Source: Deltaproteobacteria bacterium
GTDB lineage: Bacteria; UBA10199; JADGCS01
NCBI GenBank assembly: GCA_015228875.1
Contig: JADGCS010000001.1
Coordinates: 55,886-119,885, forward strand
Direction of reading: 5' to 3'
DNA: 64,000 bases
Under the pieces are notes generated by a model. It did no database searches and had not been told where the DNA came from. It saw only the letters and a program-made list of their open reading frames with translations. A program made the position numbers and the translations under genes. Shown piece after piece: positions 21,323-39,239 of this stretch (position 1 is its first letter; each line of letters starts with the position of its first letter).

Positions 21323-22210
21323 TCAATTATGAAAAAGCGGCACCTCGCGCATCTTGTCAAACTCTGCGGTATGAAATCTTTTCATGCGCTCCAATACCTT
21401 TTTGCCTGAAGCGGTGAGCTTTATGTACACCCTGCCCATGCAGAAATAGCCTTCAATAGAGGACCGGAACCGGTTGAGTTGTGCCTCGAAGACAGCCATG
21501 TCACTCTCCATGGCCTCGATTTGATTTTTCTTGTCCCTTAAGATCTCTACCAGTTGATGGGCAGCATGGACGTGGTCGGCCCTCTTTTGTTCGAGGCGCT
21601 CCTTTTTTTTGCCCGCATCTATTTCGGGGTTGAAGTAGCTCATGAATGACCGCGTCATGACCATCCACGATGAATTGACATGCCAGGATGTGATTTGATC
21701 TTCTATTTTTTCTATCTCCCTTGTGTGATGCAGAAGTTTTTTTGTGATCTCTACTGTTTGTCTTCTGATCGGGAAGATCTGATCCTGAACCGACTGGATA
21801 AAACCCTTAAGGGCTGAAATCTCAGAGACCTCCCATTGAATTTCCTGGGCAGCGCGCATTTTTACAAGGCCCTCATCGTTAAGCCTGTTAAGAAAAGAGA
21901 GGGGAACTGTTTCGAGATCATGGTTTGTTGTCCCTGTTTCGGCAAAGAGCAGGACGTCGAATTTTTTTACCTGTATGGAATCTGTTGCCGAAAAATCGCT
22001 TCTGATCCTTTCTATTTTTTTGCCTGGCCCCACTGTTTCTGAAGAGGGCGTTTGTAAATCCGATTGATAGGTGAGGGATTCATCCGCATCCAATGTCCCC
22101 GGAGGTACATCAGAGACAGAGATGCTTAACTCGTGCGAGAGCCCGCGATATTTTATATGGTCAGTCATGGCAGCAAGATAACGCATGAAGGAAATGATGA
22201 CTATAGGCAT
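21323..22210 (-). CDS. Hypothetical coiled-coil protein
   Basis: Long ORF without recognisable motifs. Confidence 0.4.
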   Translation of the reverse strand: MPIVIISFMRYLAAMTDHIKYRGLSHELSISVSDVPPGTLDADESLTYQSDLQTPSSETVGPGKKIERIRSDFSATDSIQVKKFDVLLFAETGTTNHDLETVPLSFLNRLNDEGLVKMRAAQEIQWEVSEISALKGFIQSVQDQIFPIRRQTVEITKKLLHHTREIEKIEDQITSWHVNSSWMVMTRSFMSYFNPEIDAGKKKERLEQKRADHVHAAHQLVEILRDKKNQIEAMESDMAVFEAQLNRFRSSIEGYFCMGRVYIKLTASGKKVLERMKRFHTAEFDKMREVPLFHN

Positions 22211-22299
22211 GCCTGATCACAAACCTTTGGTCTCTCGCGCATTGTTGTAGCGTATTGAAATTATTTATGTATTTCTCGTTAACATGACAAAGAACACCT

Positions 22300-24099: not shown

Positions 24100-25320
24100 T
24101 TGCTGATGATCAAACCATTTCTCAACATACTGCTGCTCGATGACGACAACAATTTCGCCGCAACACAGGCCGAAAACATCAGGCATCGGCTGCACGCGTC
24201 TTACGGGCTCGATAAAGAGGTTTTTTTTATTGAAAGCAGCACACGCCTGGATACGATTACCGAGACCATCAGCTCAAGAAACTGGGACGTGGTTTTGTGT
24301 GATCTTGGCTGGGGGGATCTTAATCTCGAAGGTATCCAGATTCTCAACGACATCAAAATGTCTTACCCTTCGGTCTACGCCTTTCTGTACACGGCTCAGG
24401 ACCCCAGTGACGAAACAGTGAGTCAGGCACTGCAGTGGAAGCTCAATTTTATAGATGACATCATCCCGATCGATGAGCAGGATTATACAATGCGCATGGT
24501 TGCCAATATCATCGACGTCTTTGAACGCAAGCGGTCCTTGCTCCTTTCCAAAAAGGATCCCGAGGATACCATTAAACTGCTCGAGGATTTTTTAAAGGCA
24601 GAGTCCGTACACAAAAATAAGATGTGCGAAAAAAACTTTGCAGAAGGGTACCTTTTTAAACACGTCTTTCCGGAGTGCCATTATCTGGCACTCACTGAGC
24701 CAGCTTTTGCTGATGATGTGGCAGGGGTGTGGAGGGGGAAGGTCTTAAACATCATTGATCAGCTAGATCACCAGACGCACGAACACGATGTGTCCATCAG
24801 GGGAACACGCTTACTCCCCAAAAATCAGAGGGTGGCGGTCATCAAGGATTTATCACGCGAGCTGCATGACATTCAAAAGAGGATACAACCGCTCCTCAAC
24901 GAACAGGCGGAATCACTCGCTGCCGAGATTTGTGTCTCCCAGTACGAGCTATCCATCAAGATTAAAGAAAACCCCATCGACCAGCGTTTAAAAAAATACA
25001 ACGACCTCATCCTTAACAAAAAAAGATTCCCGCGTGTCGAGGGCCATGACCTTCTTGCCCTCGATAAAACCTCTTTCATTGAGTTTATCAAGTCCACATA
25101 CGGTGGTTTTCCTCAAATGGCCGAAAGACGCGGGTTGGATCTTAACAATATTTACCGTGTCAACAGAAAATTTAAAAACCTGCCGTTTATTGTATTTAAA
25201 TACGAAACGATCGCCGAGATCATCGGCATTCACAATCCGGACGCCCTAAACGAAAAGATCGCCAGGCTGCTGTCACAGGAAAGACAGATCAGACGCGTTG
25301 TCAACAGACTGCCGCGGTGA
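24100..25320 (+). CDS. Response-regulator receiver protein with uncharacterised 250-aa C-terminal output domain
   Basis: ILLLDDD...VVLCDLGWGD...YTAQDPSD receiver motifs. The C-terminal domain was not recognised. Confidence 0.55.
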   Translation: MLMIKPFLNILLLDDDNNFAATQAENIRHRLHASYGLDKEVFFIESSTRLDTITETISSRNWDVVLCDLGWGDLNLEGIQILNDIKMSYPSVYAFLYTAQDPSDETVSQALQWKLNFIDDIIPIDEQDYTMRMVANIIDVFERKRSLLLSKKDPEDTIKLLEDFLKAESVHKNKMCEKNFAEGYLFKHVFPECHYLALTEPAFADDVAGVWRGKVLNIIDQLDHQTHEHDVSIRGTRLLPKNQRVAVIKDLSRELHDIQKRIQPLLNEQAESLAAEICVSQYELSIKIKENPIDQRLKKYNDLILNKKRFPRVEGHDLLALDKTSFIEFIKSTYGGFPQMAERRGLDLNNIYRVNRKFKNLPFIVFKYETIAEIIGIHNPDALNEKIARLLSQERQIRRVVNRLPR

Positions 25321-25328
25321 GGGCCAAG

Positions 25329-26252
25329 TCACCCATTTCCAATCCTGATTTTTTCCGAGGTTGTGTTTTCACGATTGTCTGATACCTCTGTCGCCTCTTT
25401 GCCCGATTGTTCCTCTATCGGGATTGGCATGTATTTGACATCCTCACGGGTGCTGTCCTCAATGAGGATCTGGCTGTCCTGAGTATCAGGGCCCCTGAAA
25501 AGCCCGTTATTCTGGGGCAGAGGTGTGTCTTCTGCGGTGGTTGCCTTCTGGGTCATGCCCCTGAAGAGCCCAAGGACAAGGCGCAGGATGTAAAGCGGAA
25601 TCACCGAAAACATGACAAGCGCGGTAAAACGGGAAAAGGGGGTGATGCCGTCAAGAATCATGGAGACATAGGCAGAGGTGTTAAACTGTGAAATAAAAAT
25701 ATCGACGGCACAAAAGACGCCAAAACCGATGATAGAGGCAACGGGAAAACGGATAAACATGAGATAATTGCGCGTGAGTTTTTTTATGCCAAATGCCAGG
25801 ACAAAGATGGATGTAAAACCCGATGCAATGGCCGCGGAGAGGGCAACAGCAGAGGTCAGGCGATAATTGATCAATTGATCGAGCAGGGTGTCGAACTGTG
25901 AGGTCTCAGGGTCGAGGCTGTGTTTTTTAAACATCATGAGCAGAAAGAAAGAGAGTAAGACCATGCCTGCGGTGTTGAGAGATGCATAAAAGGCGGATTT
26001 AAAGCCGTAAAATTCGAAGACAAGATACAGACAAATAAATGAGATAAAGAGTGCCATGTGGGAGAGTGGCATCAAGCCTGTGATGACGGTGATGTGTGGC
26101 TCACCGTCGGTTGTGGTGGCCTCAACACTGGGGTAGAACGGGATCTGCTTTGCGGACAGGACGAGTCCAAGGACCGCAATAGTGATCGCGACAGCAAAAA
26201 GCAGATACTGCACCAGGAAAATTTTTGTGGGGATGGGTTTCATATCTTGCAA
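25329..26252 (-). CDS. Integral membrane protein (possibly YhhQ/VUT-like)
   Basis: Six or more hydrophobic helices. The family assignment is tentative. Confidence 0.4.
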   Translation of the reverse strand: MQDMKPIPTKIFLVQYLLFAVAITIAVLGLVLSAKQIPFYPSVEATTTDGEPHITVITGLMPLSHMALFISFICLYLVFEFYGFKSAFYASLNTAGMVLLSFFLLMMFKKHSLDPETSQFDTLLDQLINYRLTSAVALSAAIASGFTSIFVLAFGIKKLTRNYLMFIRFPVASIIGFGVFCAVDIFISQFNTSAYVSMILDGITPFSRFTALVMFSVIPLYILRLVLGLFRGMTQKATTAEDTPLPQNNGLFRGPDTQDSQILIEDSTREDVKYMPIPIEEQSGKEATEVSDNRENTTSEKIRIGNG

Positions 26253-26311
26253 AAGCGTGGGCCATGAGAAATTCTGACGTATCCGCAGGAACGTCAGAAT
26301 TGCTTATGGTC

Positions 26312-26462
26312 TGGTAACTTCTCAATAAGTCATGGCGCATGCATACGTCATTGCGAGCGTACGCGAAGCAATCCCCCGAGTTCACTCATGAGATTGCTTT
26401 GGTCGCTTACGCTCCCTCGCAATGACGGCCGCAACTGCCAGGGGTTATTGAGAGAAGTTACA
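26312..26462. repeat. About 150-bp imperfect palindrome built from two inverted family-C units (cgtcattgcgag...aagcaatc) with perfect 15-bp outer arms
   Basis: gtaacttctcaataa (26314-26328) pairs with ttattgagagaagttac (26446-26462). The inner arms are also reverse-complementary. The centre is the palindrome ctcatgag. Confidence 0.8.
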
Positions 26463-26504
26463 TGGCCCGCGCTTTATTAACTGCATTTATTGGGTTTATG
26501 CAAA

Positions 26505-27257
26505 CTAATAGTACGCCCCGTACCCGGTCCACTGCTGCCAGGGATAGTGTGTGTCTGCTGTGACCTTGATCCAGAAGGGGCGCCCGGATGTTCTCCAGGG
26601 GTCAACGATCAGACCGTCCTTGAAGGGTCGTCCCATGGGGATAATGACAGCCACATTGTGTTCGGTAATTTTTTGCATGTTTGCTTCGCCCCAGACCACA
26701 TAGAAAAACCCGCGATTGACCGTCCTTAAATAAGCAAGCAGGTCCTCCGCCCAGTGTTTGCAGGCACCCCTCTTGCGCACGCCGACATCGATCATCATAT
26801 TGTGGACAATAGGAATAAAGATTGACCTGTAGGATTTTTTTAATCTTCTGATCTCGTTAAATAGGCCCACAGTCAGTACGGTGGCCTCGGTTTGCAGACT
26901 GGCGCGGTCAAAGTCGGTGTTTTTATAATGAGCAGTGTACAGATCGATCAGATCTTCCCTGAGTCTATAAAGGGGGTCGATTTGTTTTTTTTGTTCTACA
27001 AGATCAAAGTACTCTTTTTTGTAAGAGGCCTGTTTTTTAGAAAGCCTGTTTAGATTTTTGCCCTTGGAATTTTTGAATCGCCTGATGAGATCGGGCGAAA
27101 GGGTAGAGATCAGTTTGTTGTACCTTGTCGTTATCTCTGTGTGGTAAGAGTCGAAGTTTTCGGGGGTGATTTGAGTAAGGTAGTCCCGTTTTGCCATGGC
27201 AGAAGGGGAGATAAAGACAAAAATCAATAACAGGATCGAGATCAGGGTCTGTTTCAT
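26505..27257 (-). CDS. Secreted hypothetical protein
   Basis: MKQTLISILLLIFVFISPSAMA signal peptide. Confidence 0.45.
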   Translation of the reverse strand: MKQTLISILLLIFVFISPSAMAKRDYLTQITPENFDSYHTEITTRYNKLISTLSPDLIRRFKNSKGKNLNRLSKKQASYKKEYFDLVEQKKQIDPLYRLREDLIDLYTAHYKNTDFDRASLQTEATVLTVGLFNEIRRLKKSYRSIFIPIVHNMMIDVGVRKRGACKHWAEDLLAYLRTVNRGFFYVVWGEANMQKITEHNVAVIIPMGRPFKDGLIVDPWRTSGRPFWIKVTADTHYPWQQWTGYGAYY

Positions 27258-27543
27258 ATGTCTGATAAAACCTTTCTTGCGTTGCATGGGTTGGCAGGCA
27301 CCCCTGTTTTACCATGAAGATTATGCAAAAATCCATGGCGCAAAGCGGCCCTGACGGATGTAACCATTTTTGGCAGAAATCAAGAGAATACTCACTTTAA
27401 ATTAACTTGAAAATTATGCAAAAAGGAAGACGCGTTCAATGCGTCTTTGTTTTTGCCGAAAAAAAATGACATTAGTTTTATTGCATTAACAGGGATGGCG
27501 TTGTAAATGTTCGTATCCTGCAAATCATGGGGAGGGGGGGACA

Positions 27544-27936
27544 ATGGAGCCTTCTAAGATACTGCTTGTCGATGATGAAAGAGGCTACATCGATAGTCTT
27601 TCGGGGCGCCTTGTGATTCGCGGTTTTGATGTCCGTGGCGTCGAGGATGGTTTTAAAGCCATCGAAGCCCTTAAGGATTTCAGGGCAGATGTCGTCCTGC
27701 TTGATGTGGTCATGCCAGGCAAGGACGGCGTGCAGACGCTCAGGGAGATCAAACAAAATTACCCCAACATTGAAGTCATCATACTCACAGGCAACGCAGA
27801 TGCGCAGACAGCGATTAACGTAATGGAGCTCGGGGCCTTCGACTACCTTCTTAAACCGGTTGGTGTGGATCATCTTGTCTGCAGGCTCAACGATGCCTGC
27901 AAGAAAAAAATGCTGCTCTTAAAAAAAGTGTATTAG
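27544..27936 (+). CDS. Single-domain response regulator (CheY-like receiver)
   Basis: ILLVDDE...VVLLDVVMPGKDG...IILTGNAD...LLKP. Confidence 0.9.
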   Translation: MEPSKILLVDDERGYIDSLSGRLVIRGFDVRGVEDGFKAIEALKDFRADVVLLDVVMPGKDGVQTLREIKQNYPNIEVIILTGNADAQTAINVMELGAFDYLLKPVGVDHLVCRLNDACKKKMLLLKKVY

Positions 27937-28152
27937 CCGTTTGTGTCGAGCGGCAATGCGCTTGAGAACATAACAAGTGTCTGTCGGTAAATGCCCTGTT
28001 TCTTCGGAAGTTTGAAAATTTTGCCGCTTGCAAAATATTTCAAACCCTGAAAAATCATGTCTTTATGTTTTGTCACGGGACATGATTTTTCAGGACTCCT
28101 GCGAAACAGGGCGTTTACCGACAGACACAAACCAAGCCAGCGAGGTACAAAA

Positions 28153-29433
28153 ATGAAAAAAATGAGAAAAGTCTACGACATGATGCTGGAGGCATCAGTG
28201 GCTCATGCAAAATGGGATTACGAGGTCTCTTCCAATATCTTAAAAAGAAAGAGTCGTCTCCTTATCCTTTTTATTCTCCTGCTTCCGATTATACTGGTGT
28301 CCCTTGCGCAGGCAACAGGCAATCTGCCGGTATCTCTCGGCGGAAAGGAAACTTACACACCAGAGTTCTACACAACATCGGTCTTTCTCCTTTCGATTGT
28401 CATCGGTTTTTGTGCCGGACTCATTACGGGCTGTATCGGTGCGGGTGGCGGGTTTATTATTACGCCCGCCCTGATGAGCATTGGGATCAAGGGCATCCTG
28501 GCCGTGGGGACAGATCTTTTTCATATCTTTGCCAAGGCCATTATGGGAACTGTCATTCATAAAAAACTGGGAAATGTCTGCGTGGGACTTGCTGTGGCCT
28601 TTCTGGTTGGTTCCGGTATTGGTGTGGTTGGCGGGGGTGTGATTAACCGTACCTTGTACGAGATCAACCCCATCTTAAGCGATACCTTTATCAGCCTGTT
28701 TTATGTGTTTCTGCTCGGGTTTCTGGGAGTCTATGCCCTGACGGACTTTTTAAGGCTCAGAAAAAAGGGGGAAGATGTCGATGTGCACCGGAGCGGCAGC
28801 TCGCTCAAAGAAAAAGACGGAAGTTTAAAAAAAGCAACCCTCTCTTCAAGGCTTCAGGCCTCCAATATACCGCCCGTTATTAACTTTGATCAGGACCTTG
28901 TCCCTGGTGGTAAAAAAATTCCGGCTCTGTTTGTGGCGATCTGCGGTTCAATAGTGGGTTTTGTGGCCGCGATCATGGGTGTGGGCGGCGGTTTTTTGAC
29001 CTTCCCCATGTTTGTGTACATCCTAGGCGTGTCTTCTTACACAACTGTCGGGACCGACATCACACAGATCATTTTTACGGCCGGTTTCGCCTCGATCACC
29101 CAGTATGCCATTTATGGTTTTATTTTTTATACCTTGGCGATGGGGATGCTGATTGGTTCGCTGGCGGGTATCCAGATCGGGGCGTTGACCACAAAGGTTG
29201 TCCGTGGAATTTATATCCGCGGGTTTTATGCCATGGCCATCCTTGCCGGTTTTTTTAACAGGCTTTTTATCCTGCCCAAAAAACTGGATGAGTTGGGGGT
29301 GATTGCGATCCCCAAGACAATACTGGCAGTCCTCACCCAGTTTGGCACGATCAGTTTTTATATTACCATTGCCATTTTTGCGCTGTGGGTGACGAGCAAG
29401 TTTTTTCTTAATATCAAACAGCTCAGGGCCTAA
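28153..29433 (+). CDS. TSUP (TauE/SafE, DUF81) family membrane transporter, tandem two-domain form, paralog 1
   Basis: Two GxGGG signatures: GCIGAGGGFIITPALMSIG and MGVGGGFLTFPMFVYILG. Multiple transmembrane helices. Confidence 0.7.
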   Translation: MKKMRKVYDMMLEASVAHAKWDYEVSSNILKRKSRLLILFILLLPIILVSLAQATGNLPVSLGGKETYTPEFYTTSVFLLSIVIGFCAGLITGCIGAGGGFIITPALMSIGIKGILAVGTDLFHIFAKAIMGTVIHKKLGNVCVGLAVAFLVGSGIGVVGGGVINRTLYEINPILSDTFISLFYVFLLGFLGVYALTDFLRLRKKGEDVDVHRSGSSLKEKDGSLKKATLSSRLQASNIPPVINFDQDLVPGGKKIPALFVAICGSIVGFVAAIMGVGGGFLTFPMFVYILGVSSYTTVGTDITQIIFTAGFASITQYAIYGFIFYTLAMGMLIGSLAGIQIGALTTKVVRGIYIRGFYAMAILAGFFNRLFILPKKLDELGVIAIPKTILAVLTQFGTISFYITIAIFALWVTSKFFLNIKQLRA

Positions 29434-29554
29434 AGCTGGTTCTTTCTATGCCCCGAAGGAAATCCCCTTGGGGGAGGTGCGGTTTAACGTCAATATATGA
29501 TAGTCAGCCCGCGTGGTATTTTAGGACCGATGCGGGGTATGGAGGATAAGCAAA

Positions 29555-30256
29555 ATGATTATTGTAAACAAAAAAACTTTTTATACCGGTTTCTTTATGG
29601 CTGTTGTCTTTGTTTGTGTCCTTGTGGGCATGTTTATGCCTTTGTTCGAGGGAAAAAACGCCTTTGAGTCCGCTGATGACCTGTTTAATTCACTTTCCAA
29701 GGGCTCAACGTATTATATACCCGGTGTTGAGAAGGAGGTCCGGGCTATGGGGCACCAGCCCATCACTTCCGAACAAAAAACCACCGACACAGCAGACACA
29801 CTCAAGGTGTTGACCACAAACAATATACAGGTTGTTCCATCGGGCGATAAGATCAGTGTGACGGGAAACCTCGACGATATCATCAGCGTCGCACTTGGTG
29901 ATGCAGACTTAATGTTTAAAAATGACGGGGACGCGATTGTAAAAAAGTACGGTATTCCCGAGGCAAAAAGGGTGGTCTACATTTGGTGGCATGTATTGAC
30001 CGGTCTCGAAAAATCCCTCGAAAAGGCAGAACGCTTTAAAGAGGCGGCCATGACAAAAAAGGCCAAGGCACGGGGGATAGAGGTTGCCTACAATTTTTTC
30101 GCAATTAATTCACAGGATATCTCGCAGAAGTGGGGGATTCTTTTATTCTCACTGATATTCTATGTGTGCTACACACTGTGGTGGGGTTATGCCATTTTTT
30201 ATCTCGTAGATGGTGTGGGACTCAAACTCAAACCGGGCATGAAAAAAGAGGCGTAA
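29555..30256 (+). CDS. Hypothetical membrane protein
   Basis: N- and C-terminal transmembrane helices. The gene sits between TSUP-1 and the ppsA-like gene with 8-bp spacing. Confidence 0.45.
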   Translation: MIIVNKKTFYTGFFMAVVFVCVLVGMFMPLFEGKNAFESADDLFNSLSKGSTYYIPGVEKEVRAMGHQPITSEQKTTDTADTLKVLTTNNIQVVPSGDKISVTGNLDDIISVALGDADLMFKNDGDAIVKKYGIPEAKRVVYIWWHVLTGLEKSLEKAERFKEAAMTKKAKARGIEVAYNFFAINSQDISQKWGILLFSLIFYVCYTLWWGYAIFYLVDGVGLKLKPGMKKEA

Positions 30257-30263
30257 CGCCGTT

Positions 30264-32864
30264 ATGGGGCCCAAAAAACCGTTTTTTTCCTTCGTAAAAA
30301 AAAAACCTCAAAAAAATACAGAAGAGCTTCGTCACGAGTTTAAAAAGAGATATCATCATTTTAAACTCCTGCTTCTTGCAAACAGCAATGCCCTCAATGC
30401 CATGACGGAGATGGAAGAGGCCCATCAGGGGGAACGCCCGTTAAGACTCAGTTTCATCAGGTCAAGATGCACGACCATTGCCACTAATGTTTATCTGATG
30501 ATCAAAAATCTCAATGCCCTGTCTGGTGACAAATACACCAGGCTGTATGAAAAATTTAAGGAGATTCAATCCAGCATCTCGCCCTTTCTGGTTCGTCATG
30601 AGCCTCTTAAAGACCAGCCCTTGATTCTCTCCATGGAGAAACTCAATAAAACTCTTGCGGATCACTCGGGAAACAAAATGGCAAATCTCGGTGAGATCAG
30701 AAGCAGACTTGGTATTGCTGTTCCCGAAGGTTTTGTTGTGACCTCAAGGGCCTATCGTGCTTTCATGGATGACACAGGTCTCAAGTCCGCCATATACGAG
30801 TCTTTGCAAATGGCGGAGGCAGAATCCTTTGAGGACTACGACAATCTGTGCCGTGAAATCAGGCGAGTTGTTCTAAAGACTGATCTCCCTGATGCGCTAA
30901 AAAACGCCATCACCGAAGGGTATTCTGCCGTCGAAAAGAAACTGGTGGCAGGCGTGCCTGTTGCCATGAGAAGCTCTTCTTCACTGCCTGAACTGGCAGG
31001 ACGCTCCTTTGCGGGGCAGTACCACACTGTACTTGGTGTGACACAAGAGCATCTCTTTCAGGCATACAAGGAGGTCGTTGCGAGCAAATATTCACTGCCG
31101 GCGATGATGTACAGGATCAACCGCGGTATTCGTGAAGACGATGTCACAATGTGCGTCGGCTGCATGGCCATGGTGAGCGCAGAAGCGGGCGGGGTGGCCT
31201 ATTCAAAAAATCCTGTAGATGCACAGGATGACAATGTGATGATTCATTCGGTCTTTGGACACCCCAAGTGTATCATGGACGGGACTGACACAGCGGATTT
31301 GTTGGTTGTGACGAGAGAAACACCGCTGAGAATTGTCAAGAGGGACATCCCTTTAAAAACAAGGGAAATCAAATTTAACCCCGCGGGTCTTTTGTCCGAA
31401 GTGGGGATCAATGAGGAGCGTGGGCTTAAGGCCTCGCTATCCGATGAAAAGGCGCTTGAACTCGCTGCGCTTGTCCTTAAGATTGAGGATTATTACAAGA
31501 CAGCGCAGGATGTAGAGTGGGTATTGACAAGAGAGGGAAAAATTATTGTCGTGCAGTGTCGCCCCATTGTGCAAATCAGTCTTAAGGACCCCGTCAATAT
31601 TGAGGAGGATGATCATACAAGGCCGCACGGGATTCTTATGTCGGGTGGCAGCACAGCAAGTCCGGGCATTGCATCTGGTCCGGTCTTTGTGGCGAGAAAA
31701 GAAAAAGATATCCTTAATTTCCCCCAAGGGGCGGTTCTGGTTGCGGAGCAGTCCCTGCCTTACTGGGCCATTGTATTAAACAGGGCCTCCGCGGTCATTG
31801 CCGAGTCGGGCAATATCGCGGGGCATCTGGCCACTGTCGCCAGGGAATTTAATGTCCCGGCCCTTTTTGGATTAAAGGACGCCACAAAAATCTTGAAGAA
31901 CGGGGAGGCGATCACTGTTGACGCGGACCGCAGGCAGGTCTGTGAAGGCAAGATTGAAAGGGAGTCTTTAAACAGACTTAAAGAATCACAAGAGGTTTCT
32001 CAGCGGAGATATTATAAAAGCACCCCCGTTTATGCAGCCCTGTGTGGCGCGATACAGCACATCACCCCACTGCATCTGCTTGACCCCGATGCCATCGATT
32101 TTGTCCCCGAAAAATGCACGACCTTTCATGACATCACGCGATTTTGTCACGAAAAGGCATCAAACGGGATGTTTGAAACAGGGACTGACAAGGAGTTTAC
32201 AGAGTATCAGAGCAGGCAGCTTGTCTGCGACATCCCGATGCAGTTCTGGGTCATTGATCTTGACGACGGCTTTCGCGAAAGACCCGCAGACAACAACTTT
32301 GTCAAATTTGAAAATATCGTGTCGATTCCCATGCTGGCGATCTGGGCCGGGATGACGGCGATTCCATGGAAAGGCTCCCCGCCTGTTAATTTAAAGGGTT
32401 TCATGTCTGTTATTTTGGGATCAATGGGCGACACGTCACTCGATCCCTCTATGCCCTCAAGGTATGCGATAAAAAATTATTTTATGGTCTCCAAAAATTA
32501 CTGCAGCCTTCAGTCAAGATTTGGTTATCATTTTTCTTCTACCGAGGCTATTATCGGCGAAAATGCCTTTGAGAACTACATTCATTTTCGATTTAAGGGG
32601 GGTGCTGCCGACCGTCGTCAAAGGGTCGACCGTGCGAGACTGATCGCCAGCGTACTCGAAGAGATGGGCTTTCATACCGTGCTTAGAGGAGATTCGGTGG
32701 ATGCCAGAATGAAGGGGCACGATCCCATCTTTACCGAGTCACGATTAAGGATCATCGGCTATTTAACCATCCACACAAGACAACTCGACATGGTGATGGA
32801 GGGAGAAGAATCAATCCAGATCTACAAGGACAAGATTATTGCGGATGTTTTAAAACTGGTCTGA
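30264..32864 (+). CDS. PEP-utilising-enzyme family protein: PpsA-like ATP-grasp domain plus swivel phospho-histidine domain, with an unrecognised C-terminal domain
   Basis: KMANLGEIRSRLGIAVPEGFVVTSRAY (PPDK_N-like), central SGNIAGHLATVAREFNVPALFG (mobile His domain). No PEP-binding TIM-barrel motifs were seen. Confidence 0.65.
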   Translation: MGPKKPFFSFVKKKPQKNTEELRHEFKKRYHHFKLLLLANSNALNAMTEMEEAHQGERPLRLSFIRSRCTTIATNVYLMIKNLNALSGDKYTRLYEKFKEIQSSISPFLVRHEPLKDQPLILSMEKLNKTLADHSGNKMANLGEIRSRLGIAVPEGFVVTSRAYRAFMDDTGLKSAIYESLQMAEAESFEDYDNLCREIRRVVLKTDLPDALKNAITEGYSAVEKKLVAGVPVAMRSSSSLPELAGRSFAGQYHTVLGVTQEHLFQAYKEVVASKYSLPAMMYRINRGIREDDVTMCVGCMAMVSAEAGGVAYSKNPVDAQDDNVMIHSVFGHPKCIMDGTDTADLLVVTRETPLRIVKRDIPLKTREIKFNPAGLLSEVGINEERGLKASLSDEKALELAALVLKIEDYYKTAQDVEWVLTREGKIIVVQCRPIVQISLKDPVNIEEDDHTRPHGILMSGGSTASPGIASGPVFVARKEKDILNFPQGAVLVAEQSLPYWAIVLNRASAVIAESGNIAGHLATVAREFNVPALFGLKDATKILKNGEAITVDADRRQVCEGKIERESLNRLKESQEVSQRRYYKSTPVYAALCGAIQHITPLHLLDPDAIDFVPEKCTTFHDITRFCHEKASNGMFETGTDKEFTEYQSRQLVCDIPMQFWVIDLDDGFRERPADNNFVKFENIVSIPMLAIWAGMTAIPWKGSPPVNLKGFMSVILGSMGDTSLDPSMPSRYAIKNYFMVSKNYCSLQSRFGYHFSSTEAIIGENAFENYIHFRFKGGAADRRQRVDRARLIASVLEEMGFHTVLRGDSVDARMKGHDPIFTESRLRIIGYLTIHTRQLDMVMEGEESIQIYKDKIIADVLKLV

Positions 32865-33438
32865 GACCACTCGTAATCCCCAAAAAATCAAGAAGTTTGT
32901 TTTTAAATCTGATTGTGAAGGCTGGCTTTGGTCCCTCGGGGTCTGTGGGAGGGGTGTGCAGTATTTTGTTGTCACGCGCATCGCTTAATCTTGCGATCAA
33001 ACAGTCCATGTTGATGGGTTTAAGGAGATAAGCAAAGGCCCCTGATTCGAGAATGCGAATAGACAAATCCATATCTGCATGAGCGGTGAGGACAATAATT
33101 TCACACAAGGGGTGCCTTTTTTTGATTTGCTGAATGCAGTAGATGTCCTCAGCGTTGGGGGCCTGTGTGTCAAGCAGGATTACATCGGCCTTAAAAGTGG
33201 CCAGCGCTGCCAAAAGATCCTCCCGGCATGAAACACCCACTGTGTCAAGGTTTCTTGCCTTAAAGATTTTGATCATCCTTTCCCTGTAGTAATCGACATC
33301 GTTAACAAACAACACCCTGGTGCGTTCTGCATAAATCGCGTCACGCGTGCGTGGGTGATCCAAAGACACACCCTTTCGATCAGACACCCCCTCTCTAATC
33401 AAGGCGGGGTAATAACTGATGACACTGTGAAAGCTCAT
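32836..33438 (-). CDS. Response-regulator receiver-domain protein
   Basis: VLFVNDVD...VILLDTQAP...IIVLTAHAD...YLLKP. Confidence 0.7.
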   Translation of the reverse strand: MSFHSVISYYPALIREGVSDRKGVSLDHPRTRDAIYAERTRVLFVNDVDYYRERMIKIFKARNLDTVGVSCREDLLAALATFKADVILLDTQAPNAEDIYCIQQIKKRHPLCEIIVLTAHADMDLSIRILESGAFAYLLKPINMDCLIARLSDARDNKILHTPPTDPEGPKPAFTIRFKNKLLDFLGITSGLRPVLKHPQ

Positions 33439-33609
33439 AAAAATTCATTATGCAATGAGCATGCCAAAATCAGTGGGGTCCGCATTTGTTCTATCTTGTT
33501 GAAAAAAGAGACTTATTTATTAACAGCTGTTTTTGAATGCGGTGACAAACAGGACGGTAGCGTCAGATTTTTTTACAGGTTGTAAAGAACATGTGAGGGA
33601 CTTGATGTA

Positions 33610-33693
33610 TAGGAATTTCAAAGTCGACTGAGCGCGGGTGCATTCCTCGCAAAATTAAGGAATTCAATCGCGTCAAAGTCAAGTTAGTAACTT
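33610..33693 (+). repeat. Repeat family A copy
   Basis: aggaatttcaaagtcgactgagcgcgggtgcattcctcgcaaaattaaggaattcaatcgcgtcaaagtcaagttagtaacttg. Confidence 0.85.
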
Positions 33694-33700
33694 GTTAATA

Positions 33701-35131
33701 CTACCCGACCGTTGAGCGCACCTTGAGATTGTATTTTTCGATCTTGGCCTGAAGCGTTGGTCTTGTGAGCCCCAGAAGTTTGGCGGCATTGGTCCTGTTG
33801 CCATCAGTCAATTTGAGGGCTTCAGCGATAATGATTTTGCCGAACTGGTCCATTAAAGAATCAAACTTGCCATCTTGGGTCGTCGCATCGAACATGTGAC
33901 GAACAAGCTGTTGCACACTGCATTCGGGGTCGCTCATAAATTCATTGGGTGTCTTTGTGTTTTTTTTGCACAGGATAACCTGCCGCAGGTCCTTGACCTC
34001 AACGGGGGCGCCTTGAGAGAAGATCAGAACCCTTTGAATGGTGTTTTGCAGTTCCCTGACATTGCCTGGCCAGTTGTATTCTAAGAGCATGGCAACGGCA
34101 TCTTCAGTCAGGCCTGGATTGGGTTTGCCGTTTTGTGCCGAGAAAAAACTCATGAAATAATCGGTGAGCAGAGGGATATCTCCCTGACGGTCGCGTAAAG
34201 GCGGGACATTAAGGGTGACAACTTTAAGTCTGTAATAGAGATCCTCCCTGAAACTTCCCTCCGCAAGAGCCGCTTCAAGATTGCGATTGGTCATGGCCAC
34301 AATTCTCACGTCGACAGGAATGGTCTCTCTGCCGCCGAGTCTTTCGATGCATTTTTCCTGCAGGAGTCTTAAAATCTTTGCCTGAATATTTGCCGGCATA
34401 TCGCCGATTTCATCGAGGAGTACGGTTCCCTTGTTTGCCTGTTCAATCTTCCCCAGTTTTCTGCTGACGGCGCCAGTAAAGGCGCCTTTTTCGTATCCAA
34501 AAAGCTCGCTTTCGAGCAGGGTGTCGGGGATAGCCACGCAGTTGATGACGACAAAAGGTTTGTTGGATCGTTCGCTGTGCTGATAAATGGCTCTGGCCAC
34601 GAGTTCCTTGCCTGTGCCAGTCTCGCCGCGCACAAGCACTGTGGCATCGTTGGGTGCAACATGCCCGATTTCTTTGTAGAGCTTTTGCATAACCTTGCTT
34701 TGTCCTACAATGACATCGGACTTTGTCCCATCGGCAATGATATTCATGTCTATTCTTTTTCTCATGAACTGGCCCGACTTAATGGCGTCTTTGATGAGTT
34801 CAAGGATCTCCGGGATATCAAATGGTTTAAAGATGTAATCAAATGCCCCCATCTTGGTCGCTTCGATGGCCATATCTGTGGTTCCGTACGCAGTCATGAT
34901 GATCAATGGGAGTTTGGGATCGATATCGTGAATGATCAAAAAAGCGTCATACCCACTCATGCCAGGCATTTTGATATCCATCAAGACAAGGTCGGGAGAG
35001 CGGGACTCAACCAGATTGATGCCCTCCTGCCCGGTCTGTGCAATGATGACGTTATAGCCCTCAGCGATCAGAATTTTTTTAAAACTCTTGAGAAGCTGCA
35101 GATCATCATCGACTATGAGAATGGTTTCCAT
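33701..35131 (-). CDS. Sigma-54-dependent transcriptional activator (NtrC family response regulator)
   Basis: Receiver domain, AAA+ domain with GETGTGKELVARAIY and GAFTGA, and a C-terminal Fis-type HTH. Confidence 0.93.
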   Translation of the reverse strand: METILIVDDDLQLLKSFKKILIAEGYNVIIAQTGQEGINLVESRSPDLVLMDIKMPGMSGYDAFLIIHDIDPKLPLIIMTAYGTTDMAIEATKMGAFDYIFKPFDIPEILELIKDAIKSGQFMRKRIDMNIIADGTKSDVIVGQSKVMQKLYKEIGHVAPNDATVLVRGETGTGKELVARAIYQHSERSNKPFVVINCVAIPDTLLESELFGYEKGAFTGAVSRKLGKIEQANKGTVLLDEIGDMPANIQAKILRLLQEKCIERLGGRETIPVDVRIVAMTNRNLEAALAEGSFREDLYYRLKVVTLNVPPLRDRQGDIPLLTDYFMSFFSAQNGKPNPGLTEDAVAMLLEYNWPGNVRELQNTIQRVLIFSQGAPVEVKDLRQVILCKKNTKTPNEFMSDPECSVQQLVRHMFDATTQDGKFDSLMDQFGKIIIAEALKLTDGNRTNAAKLLGLTRPTLQAKIEKYNLKVRSTVG

Positions 35132-36597
35132 TATTTTTCCTCACATGGCAAAGAGATCACAAAGGTTGTTCCTTTGTTGTTTTCGGAGATGACGTGTATC
35201 TTTCCCCCGTGTTCATTGATGATCCTGACGGCAATACTCAGACCAAGACCAGTGCCGTCATCCTTTGTGCTAAAAAACGGCTGAAATATTTTTTCCTGAA
35301 CAGCCCTTGGTATGCCTGGTCCGTTATCTGCGATGCTGATGACAACGGCCCGGCCTATCGATGCATTTGTTTCAAGGTGTTCGGTAATCTCAATCCTGCC
35401 TTCTTTGACCATGGCCTCGCAGGCGTTGGTGATGATGTTGACAAGAACTTCTATCAGTTGATCTGGATCGGCCCAAATATCGGGGGATTTGTCTTTTCTG
35501 TTGATGATGACTTCTACGTTATACAATTTTAAGCGATGGTGCAGGAGTTGCAAGGTGGAGTCGACAATAGATGACGGGCTGATCTTTTTTTGCTTGAGTT
35601 TGGGTGGTCTGGCAAACTCGACAAAGTTATTGATCACGCTGTCGATGTGTCTGACCTCTTCTGAAATAACGTCAAGGTCCTCCTTCTGATCCCCTGTAAG
35701 AGCTTTGTGTCTCTGCATGGAAAAAAGTCTCATTTTAACGGATGTCAGGGGGTTGCGAACGCTGTGAGCCACACCGGCAGCCAGTTTTCCAACCTCAATC
35801 CATTTCTCTGATTTTTGCAGTATCTCGTGACTTAATTCGAGTTCGATCTTGGTCTTGTCGGCGTTTTCTATCAGGGTGTGTACACTTCTGCTTAATGTCT
35901 TGACCTCGTCGGACGGGTGCGATTCGGCGGGCGCGGCGTGGGCGTCGAATGTCAGCTGGCGTATGGGTTCGAGGATAAAATTAAGCAGGATATAACCAAG
36001 CAGTGCAGTAAAGAAGATCATCAGGCTCATCGTGACAAGGACAAAGGTATTGACAATATTTGCCTTGTGGTAATTTTTTTTGATGGCCTCGTTGATAATG
36101 CGTTGATGCAGTTCCTTGTAAGCCTCACACGATTTTTGAATTTCAAAGAATTTGCCGCGGACATCCTGATGAAGCCTGGCGCCGGCTTCTTTTTCGCCCC
36201 TTTGATACATTGTGATCACCTTGCTCTTTGAGTCAGAATATTTCTGGTATTCCACCCTGATGGTATCAAGCAGTTTTTTTTCTGGTTCGCCCTCGCTGAA
36301 TTGATTGGCCTCGGCCAGTTTTGTATCAAAGAGGTTCTGATATTTTTTGAGTTGGTCAAGCCATGCCGGGTTTCCATCAAGAAAAAAATAACTAACGTAG
36401 CCTTTTTGCATGGCGAGCGCGTTATCAAATTCGTGAGCCGAATTAAGGGCCTTGGTACTCCTGTCTATGATATTTTTTAGGGAGCCATCGACCTGATGAA
36501 TGTACCAGATGGTCACTACAGCCCCTGTGATGGCCATGATCATGATGAAAAGGAGAATGATCAGGATCCTTGTACGCAAACTCAGTTTGAAAAACAT
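35131..36597 (-). CDS. Sensor histidine kinase (partner of the NtrC-like regulator)
   Basis: N-terminal TM/HAMP region, H-box AAGVAHSVRNPLTSV, and ATPase NGPGIP...GTGLGLSIA. Confidence 0.9.
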   Translation of the reverse strand: MFFKLSLRTRILIILLFIMIMAITGAVVTIWYIHQVDGSLKNIIDRSTKALNSAHEFDNALAMQKGYVSYFFLDGNPAWLDQLKKYQNLFDTKLAEANQFSEGEPEKKLLDTIRVEYQKYSDSKSKVITMYQRGEKEAGARLHQDVRGKFFEIQKSCEAYKELHQRIINEAIKKNYHKANIVNTFVLVTMSLMIFFTALLGYILLNFILEPIRQLTFDAHAAPAESHPSDEVKTLSRSVHTLIENADKTKIELELSHEILQKSEKWIEVGKLAAGVAHSVRNPLTSVKMRLFSMQRHKALTGDQKEDLDVISEEVRHIDSVINNFVEFARPPKLKQKKISPSSIVDSTLQLLHHRLKLYNVEVIINRKDKSPDIWADPDQLIEVLVNIITNACEAMVKEGRIEITEHLETNASIGRAVVISIADNGPGIPRAVQEKIFQPFFSTKDDGTGLGLSIAVRIINEHGGKIHVISENNKGTTFVISLPCEEK

Positions 36598-36761
36598 AAT
36601 TCTTGATGTGTTGCTGCCCCTTAACGTGGCAACAAATATTTTTTACAACCTGTAAAAAAAAATGGCAACAAGCAGCTGAGTCAGGTGTCTCATATGACAG
36701 CCAGAGAGAAATTATACACTCATTTCAGTAAGATATTGCCCCATGCAGGTCATGCCTTTTC

Positions 36762-36777
36762 TGGCACACTTGTTGCT
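36762..36777 (+). promoter_or_regulatory. Sigma-54 (-24/-12) promoter TGGCAC-N5-TTGCT
   Basis: ctGGCACacttgTTGCTata matches the consensus with correct GG/GC spacing. It lies 70-90 bp upstream of the small-TM/TSUP-2 operon and is divergent from the NtrC/HK pair. Confidence 0.7.
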
Positions 36778-36780
36778 ATA

Positions 36781-36810
36781 AGATCAAGTAGGATCAAGTA
36801 GGATCAAGTG
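36781..36810 (+). repeat. 3x tandem 10-bp repeat (a/g)GATCAAGTA, followed by a gaagc-tgcttc hairpin, in the 5' leader
   Basis: agatcaagta ggatcaagta ggatcaagtg read directly. Confidence 0.8.
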
Positions 36811-36849
36811 GAAGCTGCTTCAAATTTCTTAGATAGAAAGGACGTTATT

Positions 36850-37020
36850 ATGGGAACTATCATCAACTGGATGACCGAGTTAAATTCATCTGATCGCCTG
36901 ATGTTTGGTGTTTTGACTGTGTTTACAATGGCTGGTCTCGGGATTTCAATTGCCATCATCGCAGAATTATTCTTCAGGGCTCTTGGTATCAAGTGTGACA
37001 AGATTGAAATTCAGCACTGA
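36850..37020 (+). CDS. Small (56 aa) single-pass membrane protein
   Basis: AAAGGA RBS, then ATG MGTIINW... and hydrophobic FGVLTVFTMAGLGISIAIIAELFF. It immediately precedes TSUP-2. Confidence 0.45.
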   Translation: MGTIINWMTELNSSDRLMFGVLTVFTMAGLGISIAIIAELFFRALGIKCDKIEIQH

Positions 37021-37087
37021 CTGGCTGTGTGGAACTTGGTGGGGCAACCTGTGTAAATCTTTGTAAACTTTTTTAAGGAGGATCATC

Positions 37088-38299
37088 ATGGATCTTTATT
37101 TACCTATAGCCGGTGTTGAGATCGCCGCATGGCAGCTTGTGTTGCTTGGTCTCACCGTTGGTGTGATCGGTGGTTTTTTTGGAATTGGCGGGGCCTTTAT
37201 GGTCACGCCAGCCCTTAACGTATTTGGTTTTCCGATGGCCTATGCCATCGGCACAGACATGGCGCACATCGCGGGTAAATCGATTGTGGCCACGGCCAAA
37301 CATCGCAAACTCGGTAATGTAGATTTAAGGCTGGGCATCCTGATGGTTATTTTTACGGCAATAGGCATCGAGGGGGGCGCAACGCTTATCATGTGGCTTG
37401 AAAAGATCGGCAGAGTAGGCCCCATTGTGCGTATTGTTTACATGGTTCTTCTTTTTGGACTTGGTTCCTACATGATGTACGAGTATTTCAAACTGACTCG
37501 TGGGGCGATGAGCAGCGGGGCTCATGATGCCAAGACATCAGGTCTGGCCCTCAGGATGCAGAGCCTTAAACTCAAACCCATGATCACTCTTAAAACGTCC
37601 GGTGTTCAAATTTCTCTATGGGTTATTGCGGTTGTTGCCACCTTCACGGGATTTCTTGCGGGTTTTCTGGGTGTCGGCGGCGGTTTTATCAGGATGCCCT
37701 CCCTCATCTACGTTATCGGCTGCCCAACTACGGTAGCCGTTGGCACAGATCTATTTGAGGTCATGATCTCCGGCGCATACGGCGCCTTCTCTTATGCCTA
37801 CAAGGGCCGCGTGGAGATTGTTGCAGCGATTGTCATGCTGCTTGGTGCGGCACTGGGAGCGCAGTTTGGGACTGTGGCCACAAAATACGTCAAGGGACTC
37901 ACCATACGGCTCTATTTTGCTGTGACCATGCTGCTTGCCGGTGTGTCTGTTATTTTTAAACACATTGCCTCCCACTACAAAAATATGTACGAGCCGTCGC
38001 TTATTGCATGGGCAAAGAGCACAAGTGGTTTGTCCGACAAAGTAGAGGTCAAGGACTGGATCATGATGCACAAACCTGCTGTGCAGAGTTGGGTCACTCA
38101 ACAATCCGATATCTTGCAAAGTGCCTACGTCCTGGATAAGTCCTGGAACAACTATTCTGGCTATCTGATGCTGGGTGCGGCCTGTGCCTTGAGCGCCCTG
38201 ATTATCATTAAAATGATCAGGGGTGTCATTTACGAGCGACGTCTTAATGGCTCGAAGATGCCTCTGGGGCGACAGGTAAACGTCGCAACAGCTGAATAA
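37088..38299 (+). CDS. TSUP (TauE/SafE) family membrane transporter, tandem two-domain form, paralog 2
   Basis: GGFFGIGGAFMVTPALNVFG and LGVGGGFIRMPSLIYVIG. A strong GGAGGA RBS precedes the start. Confidence 0.7.
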   Translation: MDLYLPIAGVEIAAWQLVLLGLTVGVIGGFFGIGGAFMVTPALNVFGFPMAYAIGTDMAHIAGKSIVATAKHRKLGNVDLRLGILMVIFTAIGIEGGATLIMWLEKIGRVGPIVRIVYMVLLFGLGSYMMYEYFKLTRGAMSSGAHDAKTSGLALRMQSLKLKPMITLKTSGVQISLWVIAVVATFTGFLAGFLGVGGGFIRMPSLIYVIGCPTTVAVGTDLFEVMISGAYGAFSYAYKGRVEIVAAIVMLLGAALGAQFGTVATKYVKGLTIRLYFAVTMLLAGVSVIFKHIASHYKNMYEPSLIAWAKSTSGLSDKVEVKDWIMMHKPAVQSWVTQQSDILQSAYVLDKSWNNYSGYLMLGAACALSALIIIKMIRGVIYERRLNGSKMPLGRQVNVATAE

Positions 38300-38429
38300 G
38301 GGTCTTGTCCTGCCCATACCTGGTATCCATTTGTCTTGATTGCATCCCTCACATGTTATAGAGGTCTGCCTGATTTTTTTACTCAAATATAAACCTCGTT
38401 GTGAGTCACGAGGTATTAAGGAGCAGATT

Positions 38430-39239
38430 ATGTCTATAGTCACCATCTCAAGGGGGTCGCATTGTTACGGTACAGAGATAGCCGAAAAGGTTGCCCGCAA
38501 ACTGGGATTTGAGTGTATCTCCAGAGAGATCCTGCTCGATGCCTCAAGGGATTATCATGTCCCAGAGGTCAAGCTCATCAAGGCCATTCACGATTCACCG
38601 TCTTTTCTTGACCGATTAACCCTTGGTAAAAAGAGATACATCACCTACATCCAGACAGAACTGCTTAAACACTTAAACAGGGACAATATTGTTTATCACG
38701 GCCTGGCCGGGCATTTTTTTGTGAGGGACATCAGTCATGTGCTCAAGGTGAGGGTCATCGCCGATCACGAAGACCGGATCAAGCTCGTCATGGGGCGCGA
38801 TCATGTCTCCGAAAAAGAGGCTGTTAAACTGCTCGAAAGGGACGATGCAGAACGCAAAAAATGGGGGCTTGCCCTGTACAACATCGACACAACAGATCCT
38901 TCATTGTATGATCTCGTGTTGCGTATCCGTAAATTCTCTGTCGATGACGCCGTCGACATAATCTGTCGATCTGTTCAATTAAAACAATTTCAGACCACTG
39001 CCGATTCAAAACAAAAACTCGCGGATATCCTGCTTGCCTCACGTGTCAGGTCTATCCTGATTGATATTGCAGCTATCAGAGATATATCAGCGGCAGAGGG
39101 TGTCGTCTATGTCTCCCTTGAGGGACACGCGCTTCAACTGGATGAATTGCATACCCTGATCAGAAAAAAAATCTTTGATGAGGTTGGCTTTTCAGAGGTC
39201 AAATTTGAATCGATCATCACCGGCGGTCTCGCAGATTAA
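38430..39239 (+). CDS. Cytidylate-kinase-like family P-loop protein
   Basis: IVTISRGSHCYGTEIAEKVARKLGF is a (d)CMP-kinase-like N-terminus. An AAGGAG RBS is present. Confidence 0.55.
   Translation: MSIVTISRGSHCYGTEIAEKVARKLGFECISREILLDASRDYHVPEVKLIKAIHDSPSFLDRLTLGKKRYITYIQTELLKHLNRDNIVYHGLAGHFFVRDISHVLKVRVIADHEDRIKLVMGRDHVSEKEAVKLLERDDAERKKWGLALYNIDTTDPSLYDLVLRIRKFSVDDAVDIICRSVQLKQFQTTADSKQKLADILLASRVRSILIDIAAIRDISAAEGVVYVSLEGHALQLDELHTLIRKKIFDEVGFSEVKFESIITGGLAD

Follow-up and report, generated by a model that had tools for sequence, protein, structure and literature searches.

A block of ten genes at positions 27544-39239 of a 64-kb window (the whole stretch of DNA analysed, on contig JADGCS010000001.1 of the Deltaproteobacteria bacterium metagenome-assembled genome GCA_015228875.1) may represent a conserved Desulfobacterota system for the phospho-regulated uptake of an anion by TSUP carriers, most likely a sulfur oxyanion (thiosulfate or sulfate). 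We propose this reading tentatively, as a possibility that falls somewhat short of probable. The strongest new result is the phylogenetic footprint of a palindrome paired with a sigma-54 promoter, a newly recognised shared operator that precedes operons for TSUP carriers, for a PpsA-like phosphotransferase (PPSL) and for DASS transporters in related genomes. The uptake and sensing of sulfate, thiosulfate and related anions are still poorly resolved in sulfate reducers, where TSUP proteins are long-standing candidate sulfate carriers (PMC5840216). Three observations have so far stood apart from one another and lacked an explanation: the "nitrate cluster", whose loss confers nitrate resistance and which bears on souring control, the "syntrophy-specific" genes DVU0145-0150, and the DASS/two-component clusters of Desulfobacteraceae. 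The present data suggest that these three belong to one regulon around TSUP carriers and PpsA-like phosphotransferases.

The open reading frame (ORF) map and Pfam agree that all ten genes listed by the original prediction, which had been drawn from the DNA sequence, are present at the expected coordinates. Gene identities were assigned from this map and from Pfam and NCBIfam profile scans of the window proteins. RR1, TSUP-1, M233 and PPSL are referred to as arm 1, and SMALL, TSUP-2 and CKL as arm 2.

27544-27936, plus strand: RR1, receiver-only response regulator, 130 aa (Pfam Response_reg, E 9e-28)
28057-29433, plus strand: TSUP-1 (Pfam TauE, E 8e-35, residues 114-397)
29555-30256, plus strand: M233, protein of 233 aa with two transmembrane (TM) segments, no Pfam or NCBIfam family
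30264-32864, plus strand: PPSL, PpsA-like phosphotransferase, 866 aa (PPDK_N 136-451, E 2.5e-78; PEP-utilizers 486-556)
32836-33438, minus strand: RR2, second receiver-only protein (Pfam Response_reg, residues 42-151) with a tail of ~45 aa
33701-35131, minus strand: NtrC-type sigma-54 activator (Pfam Response_reg, Sigma54_activat and HTH_8; GAFTGA in the translation)
35131-36597, minus strand: sensor histidine kinase (Pfam 4HB_MCP_1, HisKA and HATPase_c)
36850-37020, plus strand: SMALL, single-TM protein of 56 aa (ORF, TM scan, NCBIfam)
37088-38299, plus strand: TSUP-2 (Pfam TauE, E 1.5e-42)
38340-39239, plus strand: CKL, Cytidylate_kin2-family protein (PF13189, E 1.5e-40) with a BON-like tail

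The control elements found by pattern search within the block are the following.

33451-33466, minus strand: predicted sigma-54 -24/-12 promoter of RR2, TGGCATGCTCATTGCA
33572-33586, no strand assigned: upstream palindrome TTTACA-N3-TGTAAA, within a 19-mer at 33568-33586
36642-36656, no strand assigned: upstream palindrome TTTACAACCTGTAAA, within a 19-mer that runs to 36660
36762-36777, plus strand: predicted sigma-54 promoter of the SMALL/TSUP-2/CKL operon, TGGCACACTTGTTGCT
36779-36809, plus strand: three 10-nt tandem repeats TA(A/G)GATCAAGT, head-to-tail

The canonical sigma-54 promoter that had been predicted before SMALL and TSUP-2 is a perfect match to the consensus, and its transcript should begin near 36786-36787, judging from the usual distance between -12 and +1. 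The tandem repeats follow directly after its -12 element, at the predicted transcript start. What the original prediction had missed is the second promoter, before RR2, and an identical 19-mer, TTTACAACCTGTAAAAAAA, that lies 102 bp upstream of each of the two (0.04 expected). Two copies of the palindrome TTTACA-N3-TGTAAA are present in the window, where 0.16 would be expected, and both promoters stand 105 bp past the end of the 15-bp palindrome, so that the two sites have equal geometry. Each predicted site combines a -24 GG and a -12 GC at consensus spacing with the upstream site. As the ORF start of RR2 at 33438 is only 2-3 nt past its transcript start, predicted near 33440-33441 on the minus strand, the true start of RR2 probably lies further downstream. 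The window contains another perfect sigma-54 consensus outside the block, TGGCACAAAAATTGCT at 5154-5169 on the minus strand, just 5′ of a 453-aa ORF (3751-5112, minus strand).

The activator encoded between the two promoters has a receiver, an AAA+ domain with GAFTGA and a C-terminal helix-turn-helix, the make-up of the NtrC type. Its histidine kinase is built from a TM segment (11-29), a periplasmic four-helix-bundle sensor, a second TM segment (186-204), HisKA and HATPase_c.

Related loci were collected with a profile of the PPSL C-terminal domain, which gave at least 575 loci in species-representative genomes; the best 80 were taken and their ORFs labelled by means of the window proteins. 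Nearly all of these 80 are labelled Desulfobacterota or Deltaproteobacteria, and no Desulfovibrio member was among the matches listed from the scan. The palindrome and a sigma-54 promoter form a pair at 37 places in related loci, mostly at a spacing of 100-112 bp. Eleven pairs precede operons that begin with TSUP-1, eight precede operons of the order histidine kinase (HK)-response regulator (RR)-RR-TSUP-1 and two precede TSUP-2. The remaining pairs lie mostly 3′ of PPSL, before genes for a DASS (Na_sulph_symp) transporter, a cache kinase or a CBS protein; the DASS genes of loci L003 and L073 bear this signature. Six loci (L037, L047, L049, L063, L065 and L073) have orthologues of the window kinase (~300-470 bits) and activator (~600 bits) 5′ of the TSUP-1 operon, and in each of them the palindrome stands about 90-110 bp upstream of a -24/-12 element. 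By this pattern the palindrome would mark a single regulon in the relatives, comprising TSUP-1/PPSL, TSUP-2 and DASS operons. Since activator gene and palindrome are co-located, we infer that the NtrC-type activator is the protein that binds it.

Arm 1 is a strongly conserved module, found in about 90% of related loci, which supports the view that these genes are functional neighbours and did not come together by chance. For the neighbourhood count, loci were required to have 4.5 kb or more of sequence 5′ of PPSL; of the 56 that did, TSUP-1 was present in 51 and M233 stood beside it in 49; a receiver gene lay within 6 kb 5′ of PPSL in 54 (directly 5′ in 18), and 33 had a histidine kinase gene. 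The usual gene orders are HK-RR-RR-TSUP-1-M233-PPSL or TSUP-1-M233-(small genes)-RR-PPSL, and the same order is kept in locus L087, which has a short PPSL form of 765 aa. Whether the genes co-localise in other genomes had been named as a check on the original prediction; they do, and both arms occur together in three loci, adjacent in L007 and L009 and linked in L058. The full run in L007 reads RR, universal stress protein (Usp), DVU0150_fam (131 bits), TSUP-2-like, DUF4881 lipoprotein, membrane protein, TSUP-1, M233, PPSL, RR, PPSL2, HK, activator, and the two arms therefore do meet in other genomes. The paralogue PPSL2 is 34% identical to PPSL and has the same arrangement of four domains. 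Its gene (L007:11347-13941, also L009 and L058) comes directly 3′ of PPSL, behind a receiver gene of its own, with a kinase and a sigma-54 activator gene after it.

PPSL consists of an N-terminal helical domain (1-~115), an ATP-grasp domain (136-451), a swivel domain (486-556) and a C-terminal domain (575-866, nt 31986-32861). It shares with phosphoenolpyruvate (PEP) synthase the PPDK_N ATP-grasp (PF01326) followed by a central phosphohistidine swivel (PF00391), and its alignment with PEP synthases of solved structure is confined to residues 117-571. The catalytic histidine is kept: His521 (31824-31826) aligns with that of PpsA and is invariant in 20 homologues. The threonine that serves regulation beside the histidine of PpsA (TSH) is replaced, the PPSL motif being AGH. 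NCBIfam PpsA models cover only their first ~470 of ~790 positions, scoring 320 against cutoffs of 598-740. The original prediction had recognised no PEP-binding barrel in PPSL, and this holds: no PEP-utilizers_C match was obtained even at E <= 10, and the last ~290 residues gave no match to any Pfam model at E <= 10 and no sequence match in the PDB. An AlphaFold model of this domain from 35 sequences of two subfamilies, five of them PPSL2, reached a pLDDT of 76.6 (37 with 11 sequences only) and shows an alpha+beta fold with antiparallel sheets and no convincing PDB match, not a TIM barrel. Unlike PpsA, PPSL thus appears to carry a family-specific alpha+beta domain of ~290 aa in place of the barrel, besides the extra N-terminal helical domain of ~115 aa. 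Because the catalytic parts are kept while the barrel is replaced, PPSL is best modelled as a PpsA-type phosphotransferase with a different acceptor site.

The C-terminal domain is the best conserved part of PPSL (HDITRFCHEK, LDDGF, PWxGPPPV, RNYFMIS, SRFGFHFS, FKGGAA, HTRQLDM). Grouped at 50% identity, the sequences that carry it fall into 1389 clusters, 694 of them at E <= 1e-30, and among the 150 listed it is always C-terminal in full-length members of ~850-900 aa. With more than 1126 full-length homologues, the family amounts to over 1000 sequence clusters that are uniformly mis-annotated as PEP synthase; the window copy is itself deposited as "pyruvate, water dikinase" (MBF0103768.1). Being only ~50% identical to every homologue listed, this copy is a divergent member.

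Two further assignments of PPSL were tried and rejected. That the N-terminal helical domain, with its RYH motif, is HPt-like (histidine phosphotransfer) found no support, since its conserved His31 is not kept in PPSL2 and a PDB profile search was empty. Nor does the domain order agree with rifampin phosphotransferase, the PPSL swivel being central (486-556 of 866) and the rifampin phosphotransferase (RPH) model scoring 197 against a cutoff of 999. Rifampin phosphotransferase and PigC/RedH resemble PPSL in that their ATP-grasp and swivel-histidine chemistry has been turned to a non-pyruvate acceptor through another substrate domain. They differ in having a C-terminal swivel and a central substrate domain, and no linkage to transporters or receivers. 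Their NCBIfam models give only two partial stretches of ~200 bits on PPSL, against cutoffs near 1000.

Both transporters are ordinary members of the TSUP / TauE-SafE family (TC 2.A.102), with one TauE domain, two four-TM half repeats and glycine-rich motifs. The original description of each as a double TSUP has to be corrected: the GxGGG motifs, at residues 128 and 308 in the case of TSUP-1, belong one to each half of the internal 4+4 TM repeat that is normal for the family and is also visible by BLASTP. TSUP-1 has a single TauE domain (PF01925) of 4+4 TM segments plus extra N- and C-terminal TM segments, and TSUP-2 a single domain plus a C-terminal extension with one TM segment; the two are 30% identical (BLASTP). 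Because TSUP-1 orthologues measure 425-426 aa, translation more likely begins at the ATG at 28153, which would give 426 aa. In the TM scan M233 has segments at 13-31 and 195-213 with a domain of ~160 aa between them. M233 and PPSL are separated by 7 bp and TSUP-1 and M233 by 121 bp; PPSL and RR2 are convergent, their 3′ ends overlapping by 29 bp (32836-32864). RR1 possesses the usual acidic pocket and the T and K residues of receivers.

The second carrier, deposited as "sulfite exporter TauE/SafE" (MBF0103773.1), has orthologues of 70-85% identity in Nitrospirota and Desulfobacterota. SMALL is its constant, conserved partner: an orthologue of 56 aa stands directly 5′ of TSUP-2 in all three of the distant TSUP-2 loci (L084, L085 and L086), with genes for Usp, a histidine kinase and a sigma-54 activator nearby. 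The single TM segment that had been predicted for SMALL was confirmed. The protein scores 25.5 bits (E 1.3e-5) with the NCBIfam model DVU0150_fam (NF040783), short of the curated cutoff of 70 bits, and the match spans only positions 43-96 of 99, the C-terminal half of the family; the small proteins of L007 and L009 pass this cutoff. One TSUP-2 orthologue, protein P0229 of Dissulfurispira (666 aa), is fused to a universal stress protein domain, which fits the recurrence of Usp genes beside TSUP-2. A SulP/STAS sulfate-transporter gene (L084:13239-15020, Thermodesulfovibrionales) is found 5 kb from a SMALL-TSUP-2 pair.

CKL had been called a cytidylate-kinase-like P-loop protein. Its membership of the Cytidylate_kin2 family stands, while the P-loop (GSHCYGTE) departs from GxxxxGK[ST] in having no Walker-A lysine. 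Only the broad PF13189 family matches, the CMP-kinase equivalog TIGR02173 being scored at 37.6 against a cutoff of 102. The start codon is more likely the ATG at 38430. Relatives of CKL end, in the alignment, in a BON domain or in a receiver domain. Cytidylate_kin2 domains fused to a C-terminal receiver are encoded at L016:855-2075, L035:1529-2752 and L065:16934-18175, that of L016 directly 5′ of RR-PPSL, and from such fusions it follows that the kinase-like fold serves as an output domain of response regulators.

The combination of genes had been thought undescribed. This was incorrect, as the gene set of arm 1 is that of a cluster already studied in Desulfovibrio and a DVU0150-family protein opens DVU0150-0146 (PMC4001038, PMC4641369, PMC4265775). 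The system is therefore a variant of a type that genetics had already brought to light in that genus, with a newly recognised sigma-54 operator in common and a large mis-annotated enzyme family. The "nitrate cluster" DVU0251-0245 / Dde_0597-0605, whose annotation is poor (Korte et al. 2014, PMC4001038), encodes a TauE-like permease and a small hypothetical protein, together with a PtxB-like protein, a kinase, a receiver-only regulator, a 744-aa protein with PPDK_N, mobile-domain and ATP-grasp annotations, and a phosphatase. Mutants in DVU0251 (TauE), DVU0250 (hypothetical), DVU0247 (receiver) and DVU0246 (PPDK_N/mobile-domain) resist 100 mM nitrate, the TauE mutant showing the strongest nitrate resistance in D. 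vulgaris, whereas the phosphatase mutant DVU0245 is not resistant (PMC4001038). The single phenotype shared by these four core knock-outs shows that the four genes act together. Mutants of strain G20 are mildly impaired on thiosulfate, and a leaky thiosulfate transporter was suggested by the authors (PMC4001038).

Arm 1 and the nitrate cluster have in common the TauE protein, the small hypothetical protein, the receiver-only regulator and a PPDK_N/mobile-domain protein for which no barrel is listed, together with the core gene order and a sensor kinase. DVU0246 is shorter than PPSL (744 against 866 aa), a length that fits a form lacking the N-terminal helical domain, as does the 765-aa variant of L087. 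The window kinase differs in its four-helix-bundle sensor, which replaces PAS/HAMP.

Arm 2 appears from its gene content to match the sigma-54 operon DVU0150-0146, for which "transmembrane transport" under the activator DVU0151 has been predicted (Kazakov et al. 2015, PMC4641369) and which is up-regulated during sulfate-free syntrophic growth (PMC4265775). In both cases a small DVU0150-family membrane protein opens a sigma-54 transport-type operon beside an activator gene, the full form being found in L007; by synteny, DVU0149 would be a TSUP. The differences are that SMALL has 56 aa instead of 99 and scores below the family cutoff, that CKL takes the place of the lipoprotein and membrane-protein genes, and that the window activator is an NtrC-type response regulator with HTH_8 whereas DVU0151 is a one-component protein with another DNA-binding domain. 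A third kind of cluster, described in Desulfobacteraceae in a 2025 study, groups DASS sulfate transporters with cache kinases, Usp and CBS proteins (PMC11887813). Cache kinases, receivers, Usp, CBS and DASS genes likewise make up a common neighbourhood in relatives and adjoin PPSL in L001 and L003, while that description mentions no TauE or dikinase-like genes and no sigma-54 (PMC11887813).

We have combined these observations in a model in which Module A consists of RR1, TSUP-1, M233 and PPSL. TSUP-1 and M233 would form the membrane pathway. PPSL would move a phosphoryl group from ATP to His521, as PEP synthase does, and then deliver it at the C-terminal domain, probably not to pyruvate; the recipient would instead be a protein or regulatory site, such as a receiver or the transporter complex, and its phosphorylation would switch transport on. 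Module B would provide a second TSUP carrier, made up of TSUP-2 and the membrane subunit SMALL and joined in this genome by a degenerate CKL. The histidine kinase, sensing the periplasm, would phosphorylate the NtrC-type activator; this would bind TTTACA-N3-TGTAAA ~105 bp upstream of the sigma-54 promoters and turn on Module B and RR2 here, and in relatives also Module A and the DASS transporter operons. Gene content, its conservation, the domain make-up and the combined promoter and palindrome signature are what the analysis shows; for the rest of the scheme we infer what is transported and in which direction, what PPSL phosphorylates and which protein recognises the palindrome. A phospho-switch acting on a protein is favoured because the kinase-side and phosphatase-side mutants of D. 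vulgaris behave in opposite ways and receiver-only proteins are constant companions of PPSL.

Several points weigh against this model. Arm 1 is linked to DVU0251-0245 only through published domain annotations, gene lengths and gene order, and neither the block nor its flanks contain the PtxB-like, Tyr/dual-specificity phosphatase or DUF169 genes of the nitrate cluster; when a PtxB-like gene was looked for between M233 and the receiver gene in relatives, only small receiver-like ORFs were found there. Shared sigma-54 two-component control of both arms had been proposed. The kinase-activator pair is indeed attached to the system, but in the window a search 5′ of RR1/TSUP-1 found neither a sigma-54 promoter nor the palindrome, both being present only before RR2 and arm 2, and sigma-54 control here would thus reach RR2 and the SMALL/TSUP-2/CKL operon, not arm 1. 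DASS, cache-kinase, CBS and Usp genes, the usual company in relatives, are absent from the block and the window flanks. CKL is no conserved partner of TSUP-2, as it is found in none of the three TSUP-2 orthologue loci (L084-L086) and in 5 of the 56 PPSL loci, with three of those examined being fusions to a receiver; the parallel between the two arms that had been proposed therefore holds only loosely, the conserved partner of TSUP-2 being SMALL. PPSL residues ~235-251 (30966-31016) read SSSSLPELAGRSFAGQY where the family has the near-invariant ATP-grasp motif SSALGEDxAGTSFAGQY, and given this deviation the activity of the window copy could differ from that of the family. Finally, the nitrate phenotype fits equally well with a PPSL that phosphorylates an imported solute.

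This last possibility, transport with metabolic trapping, is somewhat doubtful but deserves to be taken seriously. TSUP-1 and M233 would import a solute, PPSL would act as a "solute, water dikinase" (ATP + X + H2O -> AMP + X-P + Pi), and the role of the receivers would be limited to adjusting expression or activity. The domains of PPSL are arranged exactly as in PEP synthase, the acceptor domain following the swivel, and its gene is tightly linked to that of a transporter. Conservation of the C-terminal domain is extremely high and includes numerous invariant polar residues (HDITR..HEK, R752, H756, FKGGAA, HTRQLDM), and the model of this domain has a weak fold likeness to small-molecule-binding alpha+beta sandwiches. 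Rifampin phosphotransferase and PigC/RedH, the relatives with replaced acceptor domains, phosphorylate small molecules. On the other hand, we know of no candidate solute and of no precedent for the phosphorylation of thiosulfate or sulfate, and the operon contains no downstream metabolic enzyme. A protein phospho-switch would also better accommodate the receiver-only proteins, which are nearly universal, and the D. vulgaris phosphatase mutant, whose phenotype is the opposite one. The suggestion in the original prediction of either a phospho-relay or substrate phosphorylation coupled to TSUP transport is, in this sense, plausible in both its forms.

It is quite unlikely that the system serves signalling only, the TSUPs being sensors or co-sensors ("trigger transporters") and PPSL a non-canonical ATP-grasp/His~P kinase that feeds receivers, with an output to other genes such as DASS. 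Almost every locus has between one and three receiver-only genes in company with PPSL, in some cases overlapping its start codon, fusions of the kinase-like domain to a receiver adjoin RR-PPSL, and the module is set among cache kinases, CBS, Usp and DASS genes under one sigma-54 palindrome. Yet canonical histidine kinases able to serve the receivers are also present (33 of the 56 loci), the N-terminal domain, in which His31 is absent from PPSL2, matches no HPt or other solved structure, and the strongest nitrate resistance, that of the TauE mutant, is most simply explained by transport.

We consider it similarly improbable that the two arms are independent systems which have become neighbours by chance in this genome. 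TSUP-2 orthologues mostly occur without PPSL, only 6 of the 56 PPSL loci have a TSUP-2-like gene and 5 a CKL gene, and arm 1 carries no sigma-54 signature in the window. Against this, operons of both types, TSUP-1/PPSL and TSUP-2, are preceded in different genomes by a common palindrome/sigma-54 signature, the arms are contiguous in two loci and linked in a third, and the kinase-activator pair that stands beside arm 2 here stands beside arm 1 in six other genomes. An ordinary gluconeogenic PEP synthase with unrelated neighbours, as the public annotation and the strong PpsA similarity over residues 117-571 might suggest, is excluded in practice by PpsA matches that are partial and below cutoff, the missing PEP-utilizers_C, a modelled C-terminal domain that is no TIM barrel and a neighbourhood conserved at ~90%.

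A bolder reading, which we regard as rather unlikely, is that PPSL is the founding member of a new class of kinases for signalling or gating: an enzyme of the ATP-grasp and swivel-histidine type which, by means of a domain whose fold has no solved relative, passes the phosphoryl group on to a stand-alone receiver or to a complex of TSUP and M233. If true, TSUP carriers would be phospho-gated, and two-component kinases and the phosphotransferase system would be joined by a third His~P route in bacteria. Through the sigma-54 regulon marked by the palindrome, this route would then be linked to the uptake of sulfur oxyanions across sulfate reducers. The predicted operator, the two promoters, the catalytic histidine and the defined partner proteins provide handles for experiment.

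Two minor features of the window lie outside this argument. Upstream of the block, positions 21323-27287 hold five consecutive long ORFs (295, 599, 406, 307 and 260 aa) without a Pfam family at E <= 0.001. The RR1-TSUP-1 leader contains a conspicuous inverted repeat.

27977-28128, plus strand: 152-nt Y-shaped hairpin, 42-nt arms and a perfect 16-nt inner inverted repeat

Its predicted fold has an energy of -89.6 kcal/mol (z -13.6) and the element is present as a single copy in the window. In related loci RR and TSUP-1 abut, leaving no space for such a hairpin, and an Rfam scan of the block returned only a spurious plant miRNA-precursor match on the hairpin and a sub-threshold PhrS match. The hairpin may function in attenuation or in RNA processing, or be what is left of a palindromic mobile element.

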